A DNA stretch of 64,000 bases, from positions 1,216,001 to 1,280,000 of the forward strand of contig CBDCWC010000003.1 of the NCBI GenBank assembly GCA_965223295.1, given 5' to 3'. This DNA comes from Nitrospirales bacterium (lineage in GTDB: Bacteria; Nitrospirota; Nitrospiria; Nitrospirales; UBA8639). Each line of letters starts with the position of its first letter. The stretch's first letter is position 1. This document shows positions 10,912 through 18,543 of this stretch, one piece after another. The notes beneath the pieces were generated by a model that was given only the letters and a program-made list of their open reading frames with translations, did no database searches and was not told the DNA's origin. The translations under genes were made by a program, and so were the position numbers.

Positions 10912-11790
10912 TTATTTCGAGATAGGGTGAAACACTAGCCGACGTAGCCATTGTCCCAGAGCTATGAGGCCTAGAAAGACACAAGCCAACAACGAATCAG
11001 TGGCACCAGTAGGCCAATCCATGAAAAACGATACAAGAAATCCAATGAGCGCAATTCCAGCTCCCAAGAATCCTCCCAGAAGCGGGACAAGAAAGAACCT
11101 TTTGGCGAGTCGGATGGCTATCATCGTGGGGAGGAGCAGGAAGGCAAACGTAAGTAAAGGTCCGACCATTAGTACTCCTAACGAAATGGCGAATCCTACC
11201 AGGCCATACAAAAGGATATCCCATACCCAGAGCCGTTTGCCCAGGGACAAGGCCAGATCCCGATCGACGGAGACTAATAACAACTCCCTGCGAAAAAGAG
11301 TAATCAGCAGGACAATGGCCGTATAGGCTGACAGAAGGATGGCCATGTCCATATCGGAAATAGCGATGATTTGTCCTCGCAAAAGTGTGACGATGCCTAC
11401 CTCTGGAACCCGCTCTGATGCCAGTAACAGAATGGTTACCGCTCCAGCAAAAACGTATACTGTTCCTATCCGGCCTTCTACCATCTCATGGCCCCGTCGT
11501 TCCAGCGTCGCAAGAAGCAACAAGGTTCCCGTGGTCACAATCGTTGAACCAAAGAGGGCGAGGAGAAAATCACTATGAGTCGGTTGTTGTTGATGATAGG
11601 TCAAATGCCAAAACACTGCTGCGGCAATTCCACCGGTCGACAATTGGGGAAGGGTTACCCCCAAGAACACCATCCTTCTACAATACATGAAGACCCCAAT
11701 GAGCGGCAGAACGATCCCCGTGACAATTCCTCCGTACAAGGCATTCCGTAAAACATAGGATGGATGAAGAATGGTGAAGAGTTCTTCCAT
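10912..11790 (-). CDS. znuB: Metal (Zn/Mn) ABC transporter permease
   Basis: Multi-TM, RRMVFLG, ELLLVSVDRDLA, VGPLL; clustered with ATPase and binding protein. Confidence 0.85.
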   Translation of the reverse strand: MEELFTILHPSYVLRNALYGGIVTGIVLPLIGVFMYCRRMVFLGVTLPQLSTGGIAAAVFWHLTYHQQQPTHSDFLLALFGSTIVTTGTLLLLATLERRGHEMVEGRIGTVYVFAGAVTILLLASERVPEVGIVTLLRGQIIAISDMDMAILLSAYTAIVLLITLFRRELLLVSVDRDLALSLGKRLWVWDILLYGLVGFAISLGVLMVGPLLTFAFLLLPTMIAIRLAKRFFLVPLLGGFLGAGIALIGFLVSFFMDWPTGATDSLLACVFLGLIALGQWLRRLVFHPISK

Positions 11791-11829
11791 ACACTTTAGA
11801 TATCTGGCAACAACCTTCTCTTAATCACT

Positions 11830-12507
11830 TCAGGCATAATGTTCTACTGGCTGTGTTTGCACGGTCCGATACCCAATCTCGATGACATCCTGCACAACTT
11901 GAAGAAGTTCTGGAATAAAATGATCCGCCCATAACAAGGTAATCCCTGTATCAGATTTCAACTTGACTAGTAACCGCAACATGGTTTGGACCGTCTTTTT
12001 GTCGAGGCTTGCCAAGGGTTCATCCAACACCAGAACCGCAGGGTCACTGGCCAAGGCTCTGGCGATTAACGTGCGCTGTTGTTGACCCCCTGATAATTCT
12101 GAGTACCGCTTCCGTTCTAAGTCCCCAATTTCTACTTCTTGTACCGCCCAATCGATTTTGTCCCGCTCGACCCTTCCCAACCGTTGCCAAGGTTTGATGT
12201 TTCCATATGTCCCCATCTGAATTACCTCTCCAACGGTCAAGGGTAGCAGTCCATTTAACGCCGCTCGTTGCGGGACGTATCCGACACGCAGAGAATTATT
12301 TTCCTCAGAAGTTTGACGATACAGCCTGCCTTCTATTGGGGAGAGGATCCCCGCAATCGTTTTAAGAAAAGCCGTTTTCCCAGAACCATTTGGGCCTAAA
12401 ACGGCATACGAGTCTCCTGGAAAAATCTCAAGAGAAACCTTCTCCAAGATCGGAAGGCCCTGATACCCAATCGTCACATTTTCGAGTGAGATAAGGGGAG
12501 TTGGCAT
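11830..12507 (-). CDS. znuC: Metal ABC transporter ATP-binding protein
   Basis: GPNGSGKT, GYVPQR, LSGGQQQR, LDEP. Confidence 0.9.
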   Translation of the reverse strand: MPTPLISLENVTIGYQGLPILEKVSLEIFPGDSYAVLGPNGSGKTAFLKTIAGILSPIEGRLYRQTSEENNSLRVGYVPQRAALNGLLPLTVGEVIQMGTYGNIKPWQRLGRVERDKIDWAVQEVEIGDLERKRYSELSGGQQQRTLIARALASDPAVLVLDEPLASLDKKTVQTMLRLLVKLKSDTGITLLWADHFIPELLQVVQDVIEIGYRTVQTQPVEHYA

Positions 12508-12525
12508 TGGGAAATTACGAGGAGA

Positions 12526-13461
12526 TTAAGGAATGCTGAGTGCATTCAGCATAGAATGAAGATTAAATTCAATCAGTTTTTCATAGGTGTCAATTCCTGG
12601 ATTTCCCCCGACCATAATAAGAAATTTTGCGACCGTGGATCCAGTTTGGTCGGCCACCCAATTTGGAAGTCGTTCGGGATAATGCGGTTCGCGCAACACC
12701 AGGCCAACCTTCTGTTCCTTCATTCGATCCACTAACCAGACCAAATGCCCTTGAGTCGGTTCAATTCCCGGTTTAATTTCAATTTGAGCGACTTCCTGTA
12801 ATCCAAATCGTTCCGCAAAATAAATCGTATCTTGATGGTAAGAGACAAACTTTACTCCACGGAGTGGTTTGGCAAGTTGTTGCCACTCAATGAGCTTCTT
12901 GTCCAGATGCGCATGAAATTTTTGTACATTGGCTTGAAAATGAGGTTCCCCCACAGGAAAAGCCTTTGACAGTCCATCAGCAATCGTCTGTGCCATGACC
13001 TTGGCGTAGACTGGATCAAGGTTAAAATGTGGATTTCCGAGTGGATGAACATCACCCTCACGCCGAAGTAATGATTTGGGAACCTGCTTGGGGTTGATGT
13101 TCCAGGCGCAATTAATCAATCCTTCATTTCCGGGAAGAATTTTAGGGTTTCTGGCTACATCAACTAACGCCGGTAACCAGGAATGTTCGGCGTCCAGTCC
13201 CAATATCACCAGAACATCGGCTCGATTCAGTTTTGGGACAAAACTCGGTTTGATCGGCACCCCATGTGGATCTTCCACGCCTTTGGCCAAGCTCTCCACC
13301 GACACAAACTTTCCTCCGATCCTGGCGGTAAAGTCCGCCAGATCGGGGATAGAAGTCACAACCTGAATTTTCCCTCCTTCATCAAGATTCGGGCGTTCAG
13401 CCATCCCGAGTGAGCAGCCCAGGAGGAACAACAAAAGAAGGTTCTTGAATCTCTCTCTCAT
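12526..13461 (-). CDS. znuA: Zn/Mn (cluster A-I) substrate-binding protein
   Basis: Signal peptide, DPH, GNPHFNLDP and SYH metal ligands; metal identity not provable from sequence. Confidence 0.85.
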   Translation of the reverse strand: MRERFKNLLLLFLLGCSLGMAERPNLDEGGKIQVVTSIPDLADFTARIGGKFVSVESLAKGVEDPHGVPIKPSFVPKLNRADVLVILGLDAEHSWLPALVDVARNPKILPGNEGLINCAWNINPKQVPKSLLRREGDVHPLGNPHFNLDPVYAKVMAQTIADGLSKAFPVGEPHFQANVQKFHAHLDKKLIEWQQLAKPLRGVKFVSYHQDTIYFAERFGLQEVAQIEIKPGIEPTQGHLVWLVDRMKEQKVGLVLREPHYPERLPNWVADQTGSTVAKFLIMVGGNPGIDTYEKLIEFNLHSMLNALSIP

Positions 13462-13518
13462 GATGTGTACTTATGGGAATGTTGAAATTTTCATGATTCA
13501 ACACGACTCCTATCGAAA

Positions 13519-15240
13519 TTACTCTCTTTCCGTAAACCCGTGTTGATGACTGCCGATGACCACCTGCCATTGCAGCAACACTTGATTTTGTGGATCAAAG
13601 GTATTGCCGTAGCGGCTATGATTATATTGCAACACCAAACGGTGAAACTCGCTTGGATAGTACGTGATATAGGGGGAGTATGTCACAGCAGACGTTCGAC
13701 TTCCTGAGGTGTTGACTGTACTGCCCGGGTTCCCCGTTTTAGGATTGGTGACCAGGGCAGGTTCGCTCGGCATTTGGTGATAATCAAACCGGAAACCCGG
13801 ACGCCATTGTTTGTTCAACCGATATTCGACGTACGCATAGCCCCCCCAAGCCCCGCGAGATTTCGTGTTTCCAAAAATACTCCGGCGACCTTGTCCATAG
13901 TCATAAAGGATTTCCCCGTGAAACGAAAGACTTTGCCGTAACCCCCTTCCCAAAGGATACCAGCGATAGTGAAAATCCACATTAAAGGTGCGCCGATCAA
14001 TCGGATCGTCTTCATCCACGGCCAGGAATGCCAGTTCACTCGCCTCTGGCACTCGGGATTGCGGGGTGTAGAGAAATGAGAATCCTAATTCTACATTGTG
14101 ATCATCCGTGAGATCTTTATACGTACGCAGCGAACCAAAGAGAGTACTTCCCTGAATCACTTGGGTTCGAATATTACTCAATGGGCCTTCCCCCACGAAC
14201 CCAAAATTAAACCCATATCCAGCGGTCAGCGCTAAATACGTATCCGTCGGTGCCAGCCATGATAGCTCTATCCCGTCCGTTCGATTTCCATTGCCCATAT
14301 ACAAGGCTAAGGTTGGAGGAATATCAATTTGGGGTAAATCATGAGCATGCCGTCGCCCTAAATACCCCCAATCCGCAAAAAACCGACCTCCGCGTATGGA
14401 CAGGTTATAAGGCAAAGAAGTCGTCTGTATGGCCGCCTCTTCGATCTCGAAAACCGCTTTTCCGAATTCTTCTGATCCGCGAGAATTCACCCCTTCGGCA
14501 TGCCCGGAGGCAATTAAATAGGCTCTGGCAAATGGATCGACATCTGCAGCCGCAAACAATTCGATCGTTCGAAGTGCAGAAGAAAAACCAGCAGGGAGTT
14601 TGGTTCCGATTTCTCCACCTGCATCGTCTCCATCGCCATCGACAAATCGCATGCGGCGTTGGGTATAGCCCCCTATCGTTTCAAACACAACCCCAAATGC
14701 TGGATTAAAACGATTTAGAATTTGTTGACGGCGGAGAATGCCCTTTTCTCTTGGTGTTTCTCCAATGTCCAGAACTGGAGGTACGTCCATCGGCATACCC
14801 CCTGCTCGATTGTATATATCCTTGGGCTTGGCAGAAGACTTCGCTCCAGGAAATCGATTCTCTAACGAAGGTCCGTGTGTTGAAGTTTCAGTTTCGGCAG
14901 GAGGATCCTGGAGAGGCCGTACATCCATCGGCATACCCCCTGTGCGATCAAGTAAATCTTTGGGCTTTGAAGATGATTTTGCCCCTGGGTATCGATTCTC
15001 TAACGAAGTCCCCTGTGAGGAACTTTCAGATTCATCTTGGGATGCGGCAGCTGCCAAGCGTACATCCTGAGATACATGCATTCGATGAATGTCTTCCCTA
15101 TAGCTATGTAATCCTTTGGAATTCTCGTATATGCTCGCAGCCCATGTTTCTGTTGAAATAAAAAATAGGATAGAAACGAGCAATAGGCCGAGCATTCTAA
15201 CCCCTAGAAATAGGGAAAATGTCTTTCTTATACGAAACAT
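13519..15240 (-). CDS. Outer-membrane beta-barrel/porin-like protein of the metal uptake operon
   Basis: Signal peptide, amphipathic beta strands, RRHAHD motif, C-terminal VIGSHQHGF; GGAGGG RBS. Confidence 0.7.
   Translation of the reverse strand: MFRIRKTFSLFLGVRMLGLLLVSILFFISTETWAASIYENSKGLHSYREDIHRMHVSQDVRLAAAASQDESESSSQGTSLENRYPGAKSSSKPKDLLDRTGGMPMDVRPLQDPPAETETSTHGPSLENRFPGAKSSAKPKDIYNRAGGMPMDVPPVLDIGETPREKGILRRQQILNRFNPAFGVVFETIGGYTQRRMRFVDGDGDDAGGEIGTKLPAGFSSALRTIELFAAADVDPFARAYLIASGHAEGVNSRGSEEFGKAVFEIEEAAIQTTSLPYNLSIRGGRFFADWGYLGRRHAHDLPQIDIPPTLALYMGNGNRTDGIELSWLAPTDTYLALTAGYGFNFGFVGEGPLSNIRTQVIQGSTLFGSLRTYKDLTDDHNVELGFSFLYTPQSRVPEASELAFLAVDEDDPIDRRTFNVDFHYRWYPLGRGLRQSLSFHGEILYDYGQGRRSIFGNTKSRGAWGGYAYVEYRLNKQWRPGFRFDYHQMPSEPALVTNPKTGNPGSTVNTSGSRTSAVTYSPYITYYPSEFHRLVLQYNHSRYGNTFDPQNQVLLQWQVVIGSHQHGFTERE
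14783..15006 (-). repeat. Intragenic tandem repeat, 138-bp (46 aa) period
   Basis: SLENRYPGAKSSSKPKDLLDRTGGMPMDV versus SLENRFPGAKSSAKPKDIYNRAGGMPMDV. Confidence 0.9.
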
Positions 15241-15246
15241 AGTCTA

Positions 15247-15375
15247 CCCTCCAAATTTTCTTAAATTTTTCCCTTTTGGGGATTTGGGGGAACAGGGCCA
15301 AAAGGTCACCATTCTCCAACAGGCCAAAAAAGAAATTGGTAAATAGAAATGTTTAAGAAGAATTAAGCGAGGGGA
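15247..15375 (-). promoter_or_regulatory. Predicted mRNA stem sequestering the porin-gene SD
   Basis: mRNA 5' arm CCCUC..AAUU-C-UUCUUAAA-CA-UUUC is complementary to 3' arm GAAA-AA-UUUAAGAA-AAUU..GGAGGG. Confidence 0.6.
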
Positions 15376-15686
15376 GGCGCTCGTGATCCATCTACACGAA
15401 GGCTTAAGGAAGATACCCATGACCGATGAGGATGGTAAGAAAAATCTTTTAGTTCACAAGTGAGACCGGACTTGTAAGAATCCTGAACATAGGATCCCCC
15501 AATGTGGTGCTCTACCCAGGTACAGAGGTCATGTTCGGCATGTTCATGTCCATCATGGTCAATTTCAGAAAACAGATGATGAACTTCAAGGGCCAACCCG
15601 AAGGGGACAGAGAAAAGGAGCACTCCACTAAGCAGGAGCAGAACTAAGAAGGTGAGTCGAAGTCGGGAAGAGCTTGTATCAGTCAT
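15363..15686 (-). CDS. His-rich exported leader peptide with C-terminal RAPP motif (DUF2946/CruR-like)
   Basis: Hydrophobic N-terminus, EVHHLFSEIDHDGHEHAEHDLCTWVEHH, ends SRAPPLA*. Confidence 0.8.
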   Translation of the reverse strand: MTDTSSSRLRLTFLVLLLLSGVLLFSVPFGLALEVHHLFSEIDHDGHEHAEHDLCTWVEHHIGGSYVQDSYKSGLTCELKDFSYHPHRSWVSSLSLRVDGSRAPPLA

Positions 15687-15719
15687 GGCTTGATTGGCCT
15701 TTTCAGAACCCGGAAGCGC

Positions 15720-15748
15720 AATTTAACAGGGAGAAAAGATGTAGTCAA
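15720..15748 (-). promoter_or_regulatory. Sigma70 promoter of the metal uptake operon
   Basis: Minus strand TTGACT-17 bp-TAAATT with TGn. Confidence 0.6.
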
Positions 15749-15753
15749 TGGAA

Positions 15754-15772
15754 ATTGCAAATAATTTGCAAT
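15754..15772. promoter_or_regulatory. Fur-family (Zur-like) operator
   Basis: Perfect 9-1-9 palindrome ATTGCAAAT-A-ATTTGCAAT next to the -35. Confidence 0.7.
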
Positions 15773-15923
15773 ATGAGATTGTCTTCTTCCTTAACGTTGT
15801 TCCTCGTTCACTCTAGGGCGACAATTTTGATTGTATCCCTGTCCTTCCTCGTTCAAATACATCCGGATTTTGGAACGCGCCATATCGGCTGAATACATAG
15901 AACGTCAATTCATCGCTTTATTA

Positions 15924-15946
15924 TGGCGGCTTTTTTCAACAGAGCC
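15924..15946 (+). repeat. Solo right end of MITE family A
   Basis: TGGCGGCTTTTTTCAACAGAGCC matches family A right ends. Confidence 0.6.
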
Positions 15947-16041
15947 AGTAATTTTCGACATCAGATGCTGCTTCAAAATCTGATGCCTATTTAGTTTTTG
16001 GCGATTTTCGGTTAACCTGTCCTATCTCTTAGGCCCGTCTC

Positions 16042-16863
16042 ATGGTTCAAGGTTGTAAAAACGCAGGGAGGGTACTGATGACAACTCGCTCTATGTTCTT
16101 TCTATTGCTGGTGTTCATAGCATTTCCTTACAGCCTCGAAGCCAAGATTCAGAGTAAAGTTGTTTCCTACTCCCTTGGGGACAACGCATATGAGGGATTT
16201 CTGGCATGGGATGACTCCGTGAGGGACAAAAGACCCGGCATTTTGGTTGTCCATGAATGGTGGGGCTTGAATGACTATGCCCGATCCCGTGCCGAGCAAC
16301 TAGCTGAAATGGGATATGTGGCATTTGCAGTGGATATGTACGGAAAAGGGAAAGTCACCGCACATTCTGAGAAAGCGAGCGAGTGGGCCAAATTGACGAC
16401 CAGCAAAGTAGACGAATGGTTTGGAAGAGCGCAAAAAGGTTTAAAGATACTTCAGGCTGATGAGAGGGTGGATCCCACCCGTTTAGCGGCTATTGGCTAT
16501 TGCTTTGGCGGGGCGACAGTCATGCAGCTGGTCTATGGCGGTGCTCCTGTTAAAGGGGTTGTGAGTTTCCATGGCTCGTTGCCCCTTCCGCCCAATTCTC
16601 CGAAGGTTACTGATGTCGTCAAGGTATTGATTGCCCATGGCAACTCCGATCCTTTTATTTCTTCAGAGCATATTGGCAAATTTCAAACGGCTCTCAATAC
16701 AGCAGGGATTGATTGGCAGATGATTGTCTATGGTGGAGCCCAACATAGTTTTACGAATCCCTCAGCTGATCAATACGGGTTGAAAGGGGCGAGGTATCAC
16801 AGGCAAGCTGATCTAAGATCCTGGATGCATATGAAACAATTTTTTGATGAACTGTTTCACTGA
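16042..16863 (+). CDS. Dienelactone hydrolase family protein (exported; true start probably 16078 or later)
   Basis: HEWWGLN, GYCFGG nucleophile motif, HG..D, HSFTNP. Confidence 0.93.
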   Translation: MVQGCKNAGRVLMTTRSMFFLLLVFIAFPYSLEAKIQSKVVSYSLGDNAYEGFLAWDDSVRDKRPGILVVHEWWGLNDYARSRAEQLAEMGYVAFAVDMYGKGKVTAHSEKASEWAKLTTSKVDEWFGRAQKGLKILQADERVDPTRLAAIGYCFGGATVMQLVYGGAPVKGVVSFHGSLPLPPNSPKVTDVVKVLIAHGNSDPFISSEHIGKFQTALNTAGIDWQMIVYGGAQHSFTNPSADQYGLKGARYHRQADLRSWMHMKQFFDELFH

Positions 16864-16987
16864 TTTCATTCCCATTCCATAACTGCCTAGAATAAATACT
16901 CGCCTCCATAGCTTTCCCCACTGTTCGTAGTCTCGTAATTCATTTGTTTCGATCTGATCTTTGAAGAGTTTAGGGGATCGTCCCTAT

Positions 16988-17177
16988 GGGACTGTTGAAT
17001 AATGATGATATTAACGGCCAAGTTTCGGCTCTGTGACGTCACATGTCAGTGGCTTCAGGTCTGTTCAAAAATGTCGTCCAGCAAGGCCGCAGCCATTTTT
17101 GTGCGCGGAGCGTATCGGTAATACGTGAGCACGGAAAACAGGCGAGAACGCCGCTGGCGGCTTTTTTCAACAAACCC
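16988..17177 (+). mobile_element. MITE family A copy 2 (190 bp)
   Basis: Ends GGGACTGTTGAA / TTCAACAAACCC; flanks CCTAT/TCTAT. Confidence 0.85.
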
Positions 17178-17249
17178 TCTATAGAAAAAACTTGTTCCTT
17201 TCCTATTCACCCCTCAAGTCGTCTGCCTGCCTGTCCGATGAATGTCTGT

Positions 17250-17714
17250 ATGAGACCAAAAGGTAGTGCAAAAAAATTAGAAGCAAGACGACGGCTAGCT
17301 GCGAGTATGCTGGCCAAAGGTCGAGGCATTCGTGAAGTGGCAAGAAAAATCGGCGCCGCACCATCTTCTGTGAAACGATGGAAGGATGCATTAGAAGAGG
17401 GTGGAAAAAATGCGTTGAAATCGAAACCCCACACGGGTCGTCCATCACGTCTTTCGGCTGCGCAACGCCAATCGCTTCTCAAAATTCTTCAACAAGGGCC
17501 ACGGGCTGCCAATGTTCGGGCTGATCAATGGACATGCCGGCGTGTGGGTACCGTAATTCGACGGTGTTTCGGCGTAAAATATCACCCGGACCATGTCAGC
17601 CGAATTTTGCGGGCCTTAGGTTGGAAGTATAAAGGGAAAAACAGCGTGCCTGCCAAGAGAAAGCCAATGCCAGGTCATGCTCAGTGGTCTAGCCTTTCAC
17701 GGCGTCACCGCTAG
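17250..17714 (+). mobile_element. IS630-family transposase N-terminal (HTH) fragment, no DDE domain
   Basis: MRPKGS..LEARRRLA, SSVKRW, GRPSRLS, WTCRRV, FGVKYHPDHVSRILRALGW. Confidence 0.8.
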
Positions 17715-17851
17715 CATTTCTTTCGCGTCGTTTGTCTGCTGTTCTCTCGAAGTGAACCTTGTGGTTCCGGCTTGAAGCTTGGACGAGGCCAGCTCTTCGT
17801 TGGCGATAAGTTTTTTCCCAAAACCGCCCTCTCCTCTCAAAAATCCAACAT

Positions 17852-18042
17852 GGGACTGTTCAATAATTCAATTTCAAGTTACGAAAACATGTTCAGTGCA
17901 GTGGAGACTTCGATGCCAGGGGAATGGTCAAAAAAGTCCGTTCAGCAAGGCCGCAGCCCTTTTTGCGCGCGGAGCGTACTGGTATTACATGAGCAACGGA
18001 AAAAGGGCAAGAACGCCGCTGGCGGCTTTTTTCAACATTCCC
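17852..18042 (+). mobile_element. MITE family A copy 3 (191 bp)
   Basis: Ends GGGACTGTTCAA / TTCAACATTCCC; exact 5-bp TSD AACAT. Confidence 0.88.
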
Positions 18043-18075
18043 AACATGTGTCAATCAAGAATGGGTTGATGTCTC

Positions 18076-18543
18076 TTAGTTGAGGGAAATAGTTGAATGT
18101 GGGTTGAAACGAATGGTTGGAACCGTGACGACGTTCAAAAACGAGCCTAAGCTTGTGATGGCCTTGGCAAATGTTTCAGAATCGACGGGTTTAGTCAAAT
18201 AGAAATTACATCCAATGGCATGGCACGTTTCCACTTCTTGTGGATTATCGGTCGTGGAGAGCATTAGTACAGGCACCCTTTTTAGTACCTCATGCCCTTT
18301 CAACACCCGCAACACTTCGATGCCGTTGACCCGGGGAAGATTAATATCAAGAAGCAAAAGGAATCGGTTCCCCATTTTACTTTGCTGTAACTGACTCGTT
18401 CCTAGTAAATAGTCTAGAGTTTCTTGCCCATCTCTTAAACGATGACAAGCTTTCTCTAAGCCGGCCCGGCGAAGATTTTTTTCAATGAGTGCTGCGTGCC
18501 CGTCATCATCCTCCGCGATAAGAACTGTCGTTTCAGGATTCAT
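18076..18543 (-). CDS. Single-domain response regulator (Rcp1-like)
   Basis: AEDD, LLDINLP, MLST, YLTKP; start MNPETT with GGAGG RBS. Confidence 0.9.
   Translation of the reverse strand: MNPETTVLIAEDDDGHAALIEKNLRRAGLEKACHRLRDGQETLDYLLGTSQLQQSKMGNRFLLLLDINLPRVNGIEVLRVLKGHEVLKRVPVLMLSTTDNPQEVETCHAIGCNFYLTKPVDSETFAKAITSLGSFLNVVTVPTIRFNPHSTISLN

Follow-up and report, generated by a model that had tools for sequence, protein, structure and literature searches.

A Nitrospirales leader protein ending in RAPP and the predicted masking of a porin Shine-Dalgarno sequence by its last codons upstream of a ZnuABC operon

Does the end of a small leader protein control translation of the metal uptake gene that follows it? 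This question is raised by one locus in a stretch of 64,000 nucleotides from a Nitrospirales bacterium (NCBI GenBank assembly GCA_965223295.1, contig CBDCWC010000003.1, positions 1,216,001 to 1,280,000 of the forward strand), here called the window, whose first letter is position 1. The interval studied is the junction of a regulatory leader open reading frame (ORF) and a porin-ZnuABC metal uptake operon, which runs on the minus strand in the order leader, porin-like gene, ZnuA-type protein, ABC ATPase and ABC-3 permease (10912..15686). The leader ends in RAPP plus two residues. A sequence-only reading of the locus had claimed that its last codons and the bases after them pair with the segment holding the porin-like gene's Shine-Dalgarno (SD) sequence, and that a ribosome parked on RAPP would open this SD. 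The observation was confirmed in part, as the arms are present in a fold that depends on context; the interpretation was supported in part, since SD masking and its recurrence in the family held up and the predicted opening was small. In silico we observed a leader family, its motif and spacing, the pairing and a codon bias. The explanation that we prefer, and to which we give slightly less than an even chance, is a nascent-chain metal sensor in which arrest at RAP/P, and less so termination, uncovers the masked porin SD.

The messenger RNA (mRNA) segment 15420-15200(-) folds with a minimum free energy (MFE) of -53.9 kcal/mol, and the two complementary arms appear as helices of this structure where the sequence-only reading had placed them. 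The bases 15376..15369 (CUCCCCUC) pair with 15251..15244 (GAGGGUAG) over 7 bp, taking in five of the six SD bases with pair probabilities of 0.74-0.88, and 15364..15352 (AAUUCUUCUUAAA) pair with 15265..15254 (UUUAAGAAAAUU) over 12 bp with probabilities of 0.75-0.89. The inner hairpin 15335-15268 fills the loop and brings both arms together, the pairing spanning ~100 nt. As that reading had also stated, the SD lies 6 nt ahead of the porin ATG at 15240, and it is predicted to be masked in the free mRNA: its probability of being unpaired was 0.10-0.20 in all 40 fold windows of varied 5' and 3' ends. Its partner was the proposed arm with a probability of 0.03-0.90 across these windows (at least 0.5 in 29 of the 40) and, where it was another, lay in 15347-15290. 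The predicted structure depends on context, that is, on the ends of the fold window. The 176-nt window (15400-15225) whose folding had been suggested has a different MFE structure.

This pairing was compared with 172 ORFs of the same genome that have GGAGG-N5-9-ATG and at least 200 amino acids (aa), in each of which a 36-nt segment at the same relative place served as partner. Pairing of the SD with this segment averaged 0.07 in the controls and reached at least 0.5 in 11 and at least 0.8 in 5 of them, against 0.80 in the window. Occlusion alone is common, with 48 of the 172 controls as occluded as the porin SD and a mean unpaired probability of 0.27. The long-range SD partner is unusual for the genome, and a generic property accounts for it: a CCUCC-containing, pyrimidine-rich leader end that faces a purine-rich ribosome binding site (RBS). 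When the last six codons (RAPPLA) were synonymously recoded 150 times by genome codon usage, mean pairing was 0.18 and nine recodings reached the native value.

Relatives of the leader are present in 52 of 61 related genomes, and nearly all named records carrying it are metagenome-assembled genomes (MAGs) and isolates of Nitrospirales or Nitrospira. Among 80 genome loci, two leaders from MAGs labelled Gammaproteobacteria and Alphaproteobacteria (L043 and L072) group with the Nitrospirales RGPP clade; their position outside Nitrospirales could be a binning artefact or a transfer. The leader of the window carries the motif ALE-V-HH...D-x-DGH-x-H...DLC-x-WV-x-HH. The invariant residues of a 20-locus alignment include A32-L33-E34, H36, H37, D43, D45-G46-H47, H49, D53-L54-C55, W57-V58, R102, P104 and P105. 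The stretch from C55 to R102 is gap-free in 20/20 aligned leaders, with 46 residues between them in the window protein, and the ~35 residues separating the His/Asp/Cys motif from R[AG]PP are free to vary, yet gapless in these 20 sequences. By inspection, the N-terminus shows basic residues, a ~20-residue Leu-rich stretch and the invariant Ala32 ahead of LE(V/I)HH, which suggests an exported protein with a signal-like N-terminus.

At the other end of the protein, R[AG]PP stands 2-6 residues from the stop in 95 of 100 loci (RAPP+2 in 59, RGPP+5 in 28, RAPP+3 in 4, RGPP+3 in 3 and RAPP+6 in 1), and two of the loci without it end in RPPP+2; it was found again in 35 of 36 evaluable new metagenome loci, our replicate set. 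In two porin-linked relatives, L045 and L054, RPPP (+2) replaces RAPP/RGPP; pairing between SD and leader end is still predicted for L054 (1.00) and not for L045 (0.00). What follows the leader is a gene for a porin homologue or for a TonB-dependent receptor: of the first 20 loci, 10 have a porin orthologue there, and PF00593 (TonB-dependent receptor) was found in 9 of 14 downstream proteins tested. The spacer between leader and downstream gene measures 81-135 nt in 77 of 82 loci. In L021, a relative of the window's clade, the leader-porin spacer is interrupted by an unrelated 309-aa ORF that lies 171 nt after the leader; the usual SD context is missing there, and the arrangement looks like an insertion parting leader from porin.

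A Pfam search of the leader matched no family. DUF2946 (PF11162) left the window leader unmatched at E <= 0.1 and matched one of 20 family members, at E 5.9, while its hidden Markov model (HMM) gave no match at E <= 1 against a six-frame translation of the whole genome; the sole DUF2946 lead was an Atlas feature search, where a cluster with 16% DUF2946 members came at rank 25 with a score of 0.95. In its architecture the leader family, with putative signal peptide, His/Asp/Cys motif, fixed spacer and R[AG]PP, matches CruR/CutF and the RAPP/RGPP class. By analogy with ApdA/ApdP, as described in the available text of PMC10951233, arrest would be expected at RAP/P, with P104 (15377-15375) in the P site and P105 in the A site.

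For the family counts, 14 exact duplicates were dropped from the set of 100 genome loci, together with three unique loci (L072, L081, L087) without a C-terminal motif within 10 residues and L065, which has no downstream ORF in the locus; the 80-locus tests also exclude L021, for its leader-porin insertion, and L085, for its 300-nt spacer. A metagenome scan with the single leader protein found no relative. The scan with the leader alignment gave 43 loci, none >44% identical and so too distant to deepen the covariation of the window's clade.

With the leader segment defined as R codon to stop+15, the SD core pairs chiefly with this segment in 56 of 80 loci and in 21 of 31 loci of the replicate set. 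The PP codons were the best partner in 24 loci and the PP-to-stop part in 22; the 15 nt that follow took this place in 9 loci, and the R-A/G codons did so in a single one. Among 31 cluster representatives, SD pairing was 0.57 for the native arm, 0.38 for a shuffled arm (Wilcoxon p 0.005) and 0.45 for a swapped arm of similar GC (p 0.03). At -16.2 kcal/mol the cognate duplexes of the family were also more stable than the non-cognate ones, at -14.2 kcal/mol (z -4.0), an excess that after GC stratification stood at z -1.8 (median p 0.047) and -2.3 (median p 0.014). RNAalifold on eight sequences of the clade recovered helix H1, in which CCUCC of the Pro-Pro codons pairs with GGAGG, helix H2, in which the last codon, the stop and the next bases pair with the segment immediately 5' of the SD, and H3/H4, the inner hairpin, which is kept in the eight clade members and has double changes in 3 of 22 pairs. 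In this clade 91.1% of cells are paired, compared with 89.3 +/- 0.7% after shuffling; 5 of 500 shuffles reach 91.1%.

The codon bias concerns the first Pro codon, which is CCU in 61 of 83 unique loci and in 33 of 35 replicate loci and yields the word CCUCC, against a background use of CCU in downstream ORFs of 0.30 in low-GC and 0.11 in high-GC relatives. CCU is the majority codon in 12 of 16 and 8 of 15 clusters (cluster-level binomial p 2e-4 and 5e-5). The second Pro codon shows no constraint in its third base (C 28, A 23, G 17, U 15). A biased first and an unconstrained second Pro codon argue for selection on the RNA word CCUCC. This bias is the sole part of the complementarity that adds information. 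The stem had been presented as independent support for arrest, a claim that does not survive: CCUCC comes with the Pro-Pro codons and GGAGG is an ordinary SD.

In the mechanism that we prefer, the leader would be exported, carrying its His/Asp/Cys metal-binding motif 46 residues ahead of RAPP, and a ribosome at RAP/P would have this motif freshly emerged through the translocon. With the ribosome at the arrest point, residues 36-61 of the motif stand 43-68 residues away from the peptidyl-transferase centre; judged from the alignment and the CruR precedent, this geometry fits a metal motif just past the translocon. Pyrimidine-rich RNA would mask the porin SD as long as the mRNA is free, with the codons of Pro105 and Leu106, the UAA and the 11 nt beyond it as the favoured partner. 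This arm would be covered by a ribosome stalled at RAPP or, for a shorter time, by one that terminates at the stop, and the barrier for the 30S subunit at the start of the porin gene would be lowered. The pull on the chain that releases the arrest might come from the exported motif as it binds metal or folds, so that at high metal the site would be re-masked and uptake turned down, and the conserved promoter palindrome described below would add transcriptional control. That arrest occurs, which metal is sensed, in which direction the response goes and that stem opening controls porin translation are what we infer here.

Several results weigh against this mechanism. In the footprint test, all bases covered by a ribosome whose P site holds Pro104 (footprint -15 to +14) were made unpairable and the opening cost was taken over the RBS region -18..+6; these folds are equilibrium predictions that ignore kinetics, ribosome helicase action and queued ribosomes. 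As had been expected, the SD-pairing bases 15376-15369 and the 5' end of the second helix (15364-15363) lie inside the footprint of the stalled ribosome; 15362-15352 lie beyond it. Blocking the footprint opened the SD less than had been foreseen: its unpaired probability rose only from 0.12-0.13 to 0.20-0.24, because 15347-15336 and 15353-15349 re-pair with SD and AUG. The opening cost was 12.5 kcal/mol before blocking and 10.4 after it (11.6 and 10.8 in a second construct), a relief of 0.8-2.1 kcal/mol, and the AUG unpaired probability dropped from 0.65 to 0.02. The alternative pairings join 15347-15336 with 15254-15243 (SD), 15353-15349 with the AUG and 15361-15354 with 15230-15222. In favour of the mechanism, blocking gave a mean relief of 2.8 kcal/mol over the family (n=80), with opening costs averaging 14.6 kcal/mol before and 11.8 after. 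Within the window's clade the effect is inconsistent, being large in L003 (17.4 to 9.9 kcal/mol) and L023 (19.5 to 11.3 kcal/mol) and absent or reversed in L005, L006 and L007. The downstream start codons in the family tests were a heuristic choice, and the clusters are related, so that their p-values overstate the evidence.

The anti-SD arm is also covered by a ribosome held at the stop codon, and such a terminating ribosome gave opening costs in the window (10.1 and 9.9 kcal/mol) at least as low as the stalled one. That it lowers the cost at least as much (10.1 vs 10.4 kcal/mol in the window, 11.2 vs 11.8 kcal/mol as family means) is what plain translational coupling would predict, in which no arrest is regulated, any finishing ribosome transiently melts the stem, translation of the porin merely follows that of the leader and RAPP is kept for another reason. 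We give this explanation little credence, as in 20/20 sequences neither R, P and P nor their distance from the metal motif changes while the ~35 residues between vary, and as RAPP and RGPP are, according to the available text of PMC12992588, strongly avoided in proteomes outside arrest peptides.

The small effect of footprint blocking on the window RBS would also suit a leader that is a true arrest sensor with another output, in which the stalled ribosome shields the transcript from Rho or decay in the 122-nt spacer between leader stop and porin ATG (15362-15241, minus strand) and the stem is incidental, a by-product of Pro-Pro codons facing a strong SD. CruR-bfrG, which in the available text of PMC9426467 shares the leader architecture and a long intergenic region and acts via Rho, speaks for such an output, as do the conserved spacer length and the finding that non-cognate arms match the native one in pairing. 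Set against this, the spacer is not rut-like, its first 60 nt holding 11 C and 9 G in the window and on average 16.2 C and 14.1 G in the family, with C >= 2G in 9 of 80 loci; it is predicted to be structured, and a pattern scan of it gave no terminator-like site with a convincing U tract. The Rho or decay output, which also leaves the CCU bias and the difference between cognate and non-cognate duplexes unexplained, appears unlikely to us. As a candidate intrinsic terminator we considered a weak 5-bp hairpin (15382-15365) with a U/C tail and rejected it; relatives, with their different codons, do not preserve its stem.

The stem itself is the other point at which our preferred mechanism is vulnerable. 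The 176-nt fold has z = -0.90, and 39 of 200 shuffles are at least as stable. The RBS opening cost of 11.6 kcal/mol is ordinary beside 9.9 +/- 3.2 kcal/mol in 130 control genes, 28% of which equal or exceed it, and synonymous recoding reduces it by just 0.9 kcal/mol on average, 24 of 150 recodings being at or above the native cost. Relatives' arms swapped into the window pair nearly as well as the native one (0.76 vs 0.80; shuffled arm 0.24), and the duplex of the two window arms (-13.6 kcal/mol) is close to the non-cognate means of -13.4 and -13.0 kcal/mol. At the family level, 24 of 80 loci lack SD pairing to the leader 3' end, and the pairing baselines are high for a C/U-rich arm and a purine-rich RBS. 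Covariation among relatives had been proposed as a check, and it was minimal: one of 15 pairs in the two anti-SD helices is compensatory among eight similar sequences (H1 0/5, H2 1/10), the one pair being the window's own U-A where four relatives have C-G. When the partner is slid by +/-1 column, 71-73% of cells stay paired, because the arms are of low complexity. The preference for CCU at the first Pro codon could, by analogy, be selected for arrest itself; in the available text of PMC10951233 the ApdA construct, from a high-GC actinomycete, writes RAPP as CGC GCT CCT CCT and ApdP writes it as CGC GCG CCG CCA, and the CCU preference may not be confined to Nitrospirales.

Such values are what would be seen if the stem had no function and were a pairing like many others, of nearly equal energy, that a pyrimidine-rich spacer can form with a purine-rich RBS, and its z-score, two competing partners, ordinary opening cost and tolerance of sliding all point in this direction. 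Partner-specific pairing is nevertheless rare in the genome (5/172) and among the recodings (9/150), and both the bias towards CCU and the excess of the family over its controls speak against this reading. We regard a functionless stem as quite improbable.

Beyond the preferred mechanism stands a more specific idea, which we find rather doubtful, that the two arresting Pro codons (CCU-CCN) double as the anti-SD, one word both stalling the ribosome and masking the next start. A nascent-chain metal sensor, possibly for zinc given ZnuABC, might then switch translation of outer-membrane uptake directly, a step that we hold with the same reserve; that control here dispenses with a regulatory protein and with an intergenic riboswitch is, to a similar degree, on the unlikely side. 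Should this idea be true, SD masking would for the first time be a demonstrable output of a RAPP-type leader, and a zinc-type uptake operon would have its first nascent-chain sensor. To our knowledge, work on nascent-chain metal sensors (CruR, CutF) is recent and limited to copper in Proteobacteria. Nitrospirales include environmentally important nitrite oxidisers, and the metal-sensor principle would, if our account is right, extend to them, to a His-rich motif and to an uptake regulon of the porin-ZnuABC or TonB-receptor kind. The CCU bias offers a testable handle on whether RAPP leaders act through mRNA structure. A caution also follows: as a Pro-Pro motif always resembles an anti-SD, such stems need controls before they count as evidence.

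The features of the locus are collected in Table 1. The leader closes with the minus-strand codons R CGA (15383-15381), A GCG (15380-15378), P CCU (15377-15375), P CCC (15374-15372), L CUC (15371-15369), A GCU (15368-15366) and UAA (15365-15363).

Table 1. Features of the leader, its predicted mRNA pairing and the porin-ZnuABC operon, in window coordinates.
Feature	Coordinates	Strand	Description	Basis
Palindrome, perfect	15771-15755	-	TTGCAAAT-T-ATTTGCAA, just 5' of the promoter-like site	
Promoter-like site	15748-15720	-	TTGACT-17-TAAATT	Pattern scan
Leader ORF	15686-15363	-	107 aa, coordinates including stop; ends ...VDGSRAPPLA, then stop	ORF list
RAPP codons (R102-P105)	15383-15372	-	CGA GCG CCU CCC	
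5' (anti-SD) arm	15376-15352	-	Last Pro-codon bases, Leu106, Ala107, UAA, 11 nt of spacer	MFE and pair probabilities
Alternative RBS partner	15361-15336	-	Outside the stalled-ribosome footprint	Constrained folds; competes in free folds too
Inner hairpin	15335-15268	-	Apical helices on a 12-bp U-rich/purine-rich stem (15335-15324 with 15279-15268)	
3' arm with porin SD	15265-15244	-		MFE and pair probabilities
Porin SD	15252-15247	-	GGAGGG, 6 nt 5' of ATG 15240-15238	
Outer-membrane beta-barrel porin-like gene	15240-13519	-	573 aa; RBS predicted masked	Pfam BBP2
ZnuA-type binding protein	13461-12526	-		Pfam ZnuA 3.5e-44
ABC ATPase	12507-11830	-		Pfam ABC_tran 4.2e-27
ABC-3 permease	11790-10912	-		Pfam ABC-3 2.2e-29

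Upstream of the leader, a palindrome of the TGCAA-N5-TTGCA type was found in 15 of 19 relatives examined, at 52-87 nt, including relatives of the RGPP / TonB-receptor clade; the window's genome has five such sites in all. The palindrome of the window is a candidate operator for a metal-responsive repressor, and if it acts as one the locus would be controlled at two levels, transcription and translation. An Rfam scan of 13000-17000 at E <= 1 matched no RNA family. The porin-like protein matches Pfam BBP2 with E 2e-05 and 24.5 bits, slightly below the cut-off of 26.2. In its N-terminal part (~14690-15030, minus strand), a ~35-residue segment occurs in two copies (SLENR-Y/F-PGAKSS-x-KPKD...GGMPMDV) with a short linker between them, both preceding the barrel. 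Elsewhere in the window, two neighbouring ORFs in 17043-18083 (+) have in common a repeated peptide stretch, QQGRS-x-FCARSV..., and the ORF 17043-17714 (+) has a helix-turn-helix-like middle part that we take to resemble the N-termini of insertion-sequence transposases.

How does this leader stand beside known arrest systems, as far as the available texts of the cited papers describe them? The sequence-only reading invoked SecM/MifM, and the locus is indeed built like the SecM-secA and CutF-cutO switches, both studied by experiment. In SecM-secA and MifM-yidC2, a ribosome arrested near the end of the upstream ORF (uORF) disrupts an SD-sequestering stem (PMC7897499). These two sense translocation or insertion activity, not a metal, and their arrest sequences differ (RAGP in SecM); their stems are experimentally supported (PMC7897499), whereas the Nitrospirales stem is predicted. 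ApdA/ApdP and the RAPP/RGPP uORFs resemble the leader in having RAPP/RGPP near the C-terminus of a small protein that is secreted or, in our case, putatively so (PMC7897499, PMC10951233, PMC12992588), and the RAPP/RGPP uORFs also lie upstream of TonB-dependent or metal-homeostasis genes (PMC12992588). For ApdA and ApdP the authors found, in the text available, no SD-sequestering hairpin (PMC7897499), a point to be added to those that weigh against SD masking here. Neither the Nitrospirales family nor its porin-ZnuABC context is mentioned in the available text of these papers. We found no publication linking Nitrospira with arrest peptides, DUF2946, the RAPP motif or CruR, in a search outside which lie the supplementary uORF tables that may include the family; in its available text, PMC12992588 mentions 'Nitrospir' just within a list of phyla.

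The closest likenesses are to CutF and CruR. CutF-cutO of Rhodobacter capsulatus (DUF2946) has, as would be expected here, a small Sec-exported leader with a metal motif and a C-terminal proline stalling motif, and the SD of its next gene is shielded by an mRNA stem that stalling is proposed to melt; CutF stalling opens the stem shielding the cutO SD (PMC9973294, bioRxiv 10.1101/2025.02.05.636593). It differs in carrying CxxxC and PPP where the Nitrospirales leader has the His/Asp/Cys motif and RAPP, and in an intergenic stem-loop, where in our case the arrest and terminal codons are themselves part of the anti-SD arm and the pairing spans ~100 nt around an inner hairpin. Its target is a Cu-induced copper oxidase, here the porin-ZnuABC uptake operon, and DUF2946, the HMM of the CutF/CruR family, leaves the Nitrospirales leader unmatched. 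CruR has a signal peptide, CXXC, 45 residues and then RAPP 3 residues before the stop, followed by a 162-bp intergenic region and a TonB-dependent transporter, and it acts via Rho (PMC9426467). CruR-bfrG of Bordetella pertussis is thus alike in its signal peptide (putative in our leader), in a metal motif ~45 residues before RAPP (46 here), in RAPP 2-3 residues from the stop, in a long spacer and in an outer-membrane uptake protein downstream, and the expected logic, metal turning uptake off, is the same. The differences are its output, Rho-dependent termination and not SD masking, its CXXC in place of a His-rich motif, and its RAPP in frequent codons where the Nitrospirales family prefers the rarer CCU. 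The class is known, and the Nitrospirales leader adds to it a distinct motif, host lineage and operon; it is plausible that the window holds a new member of a known mechanism.

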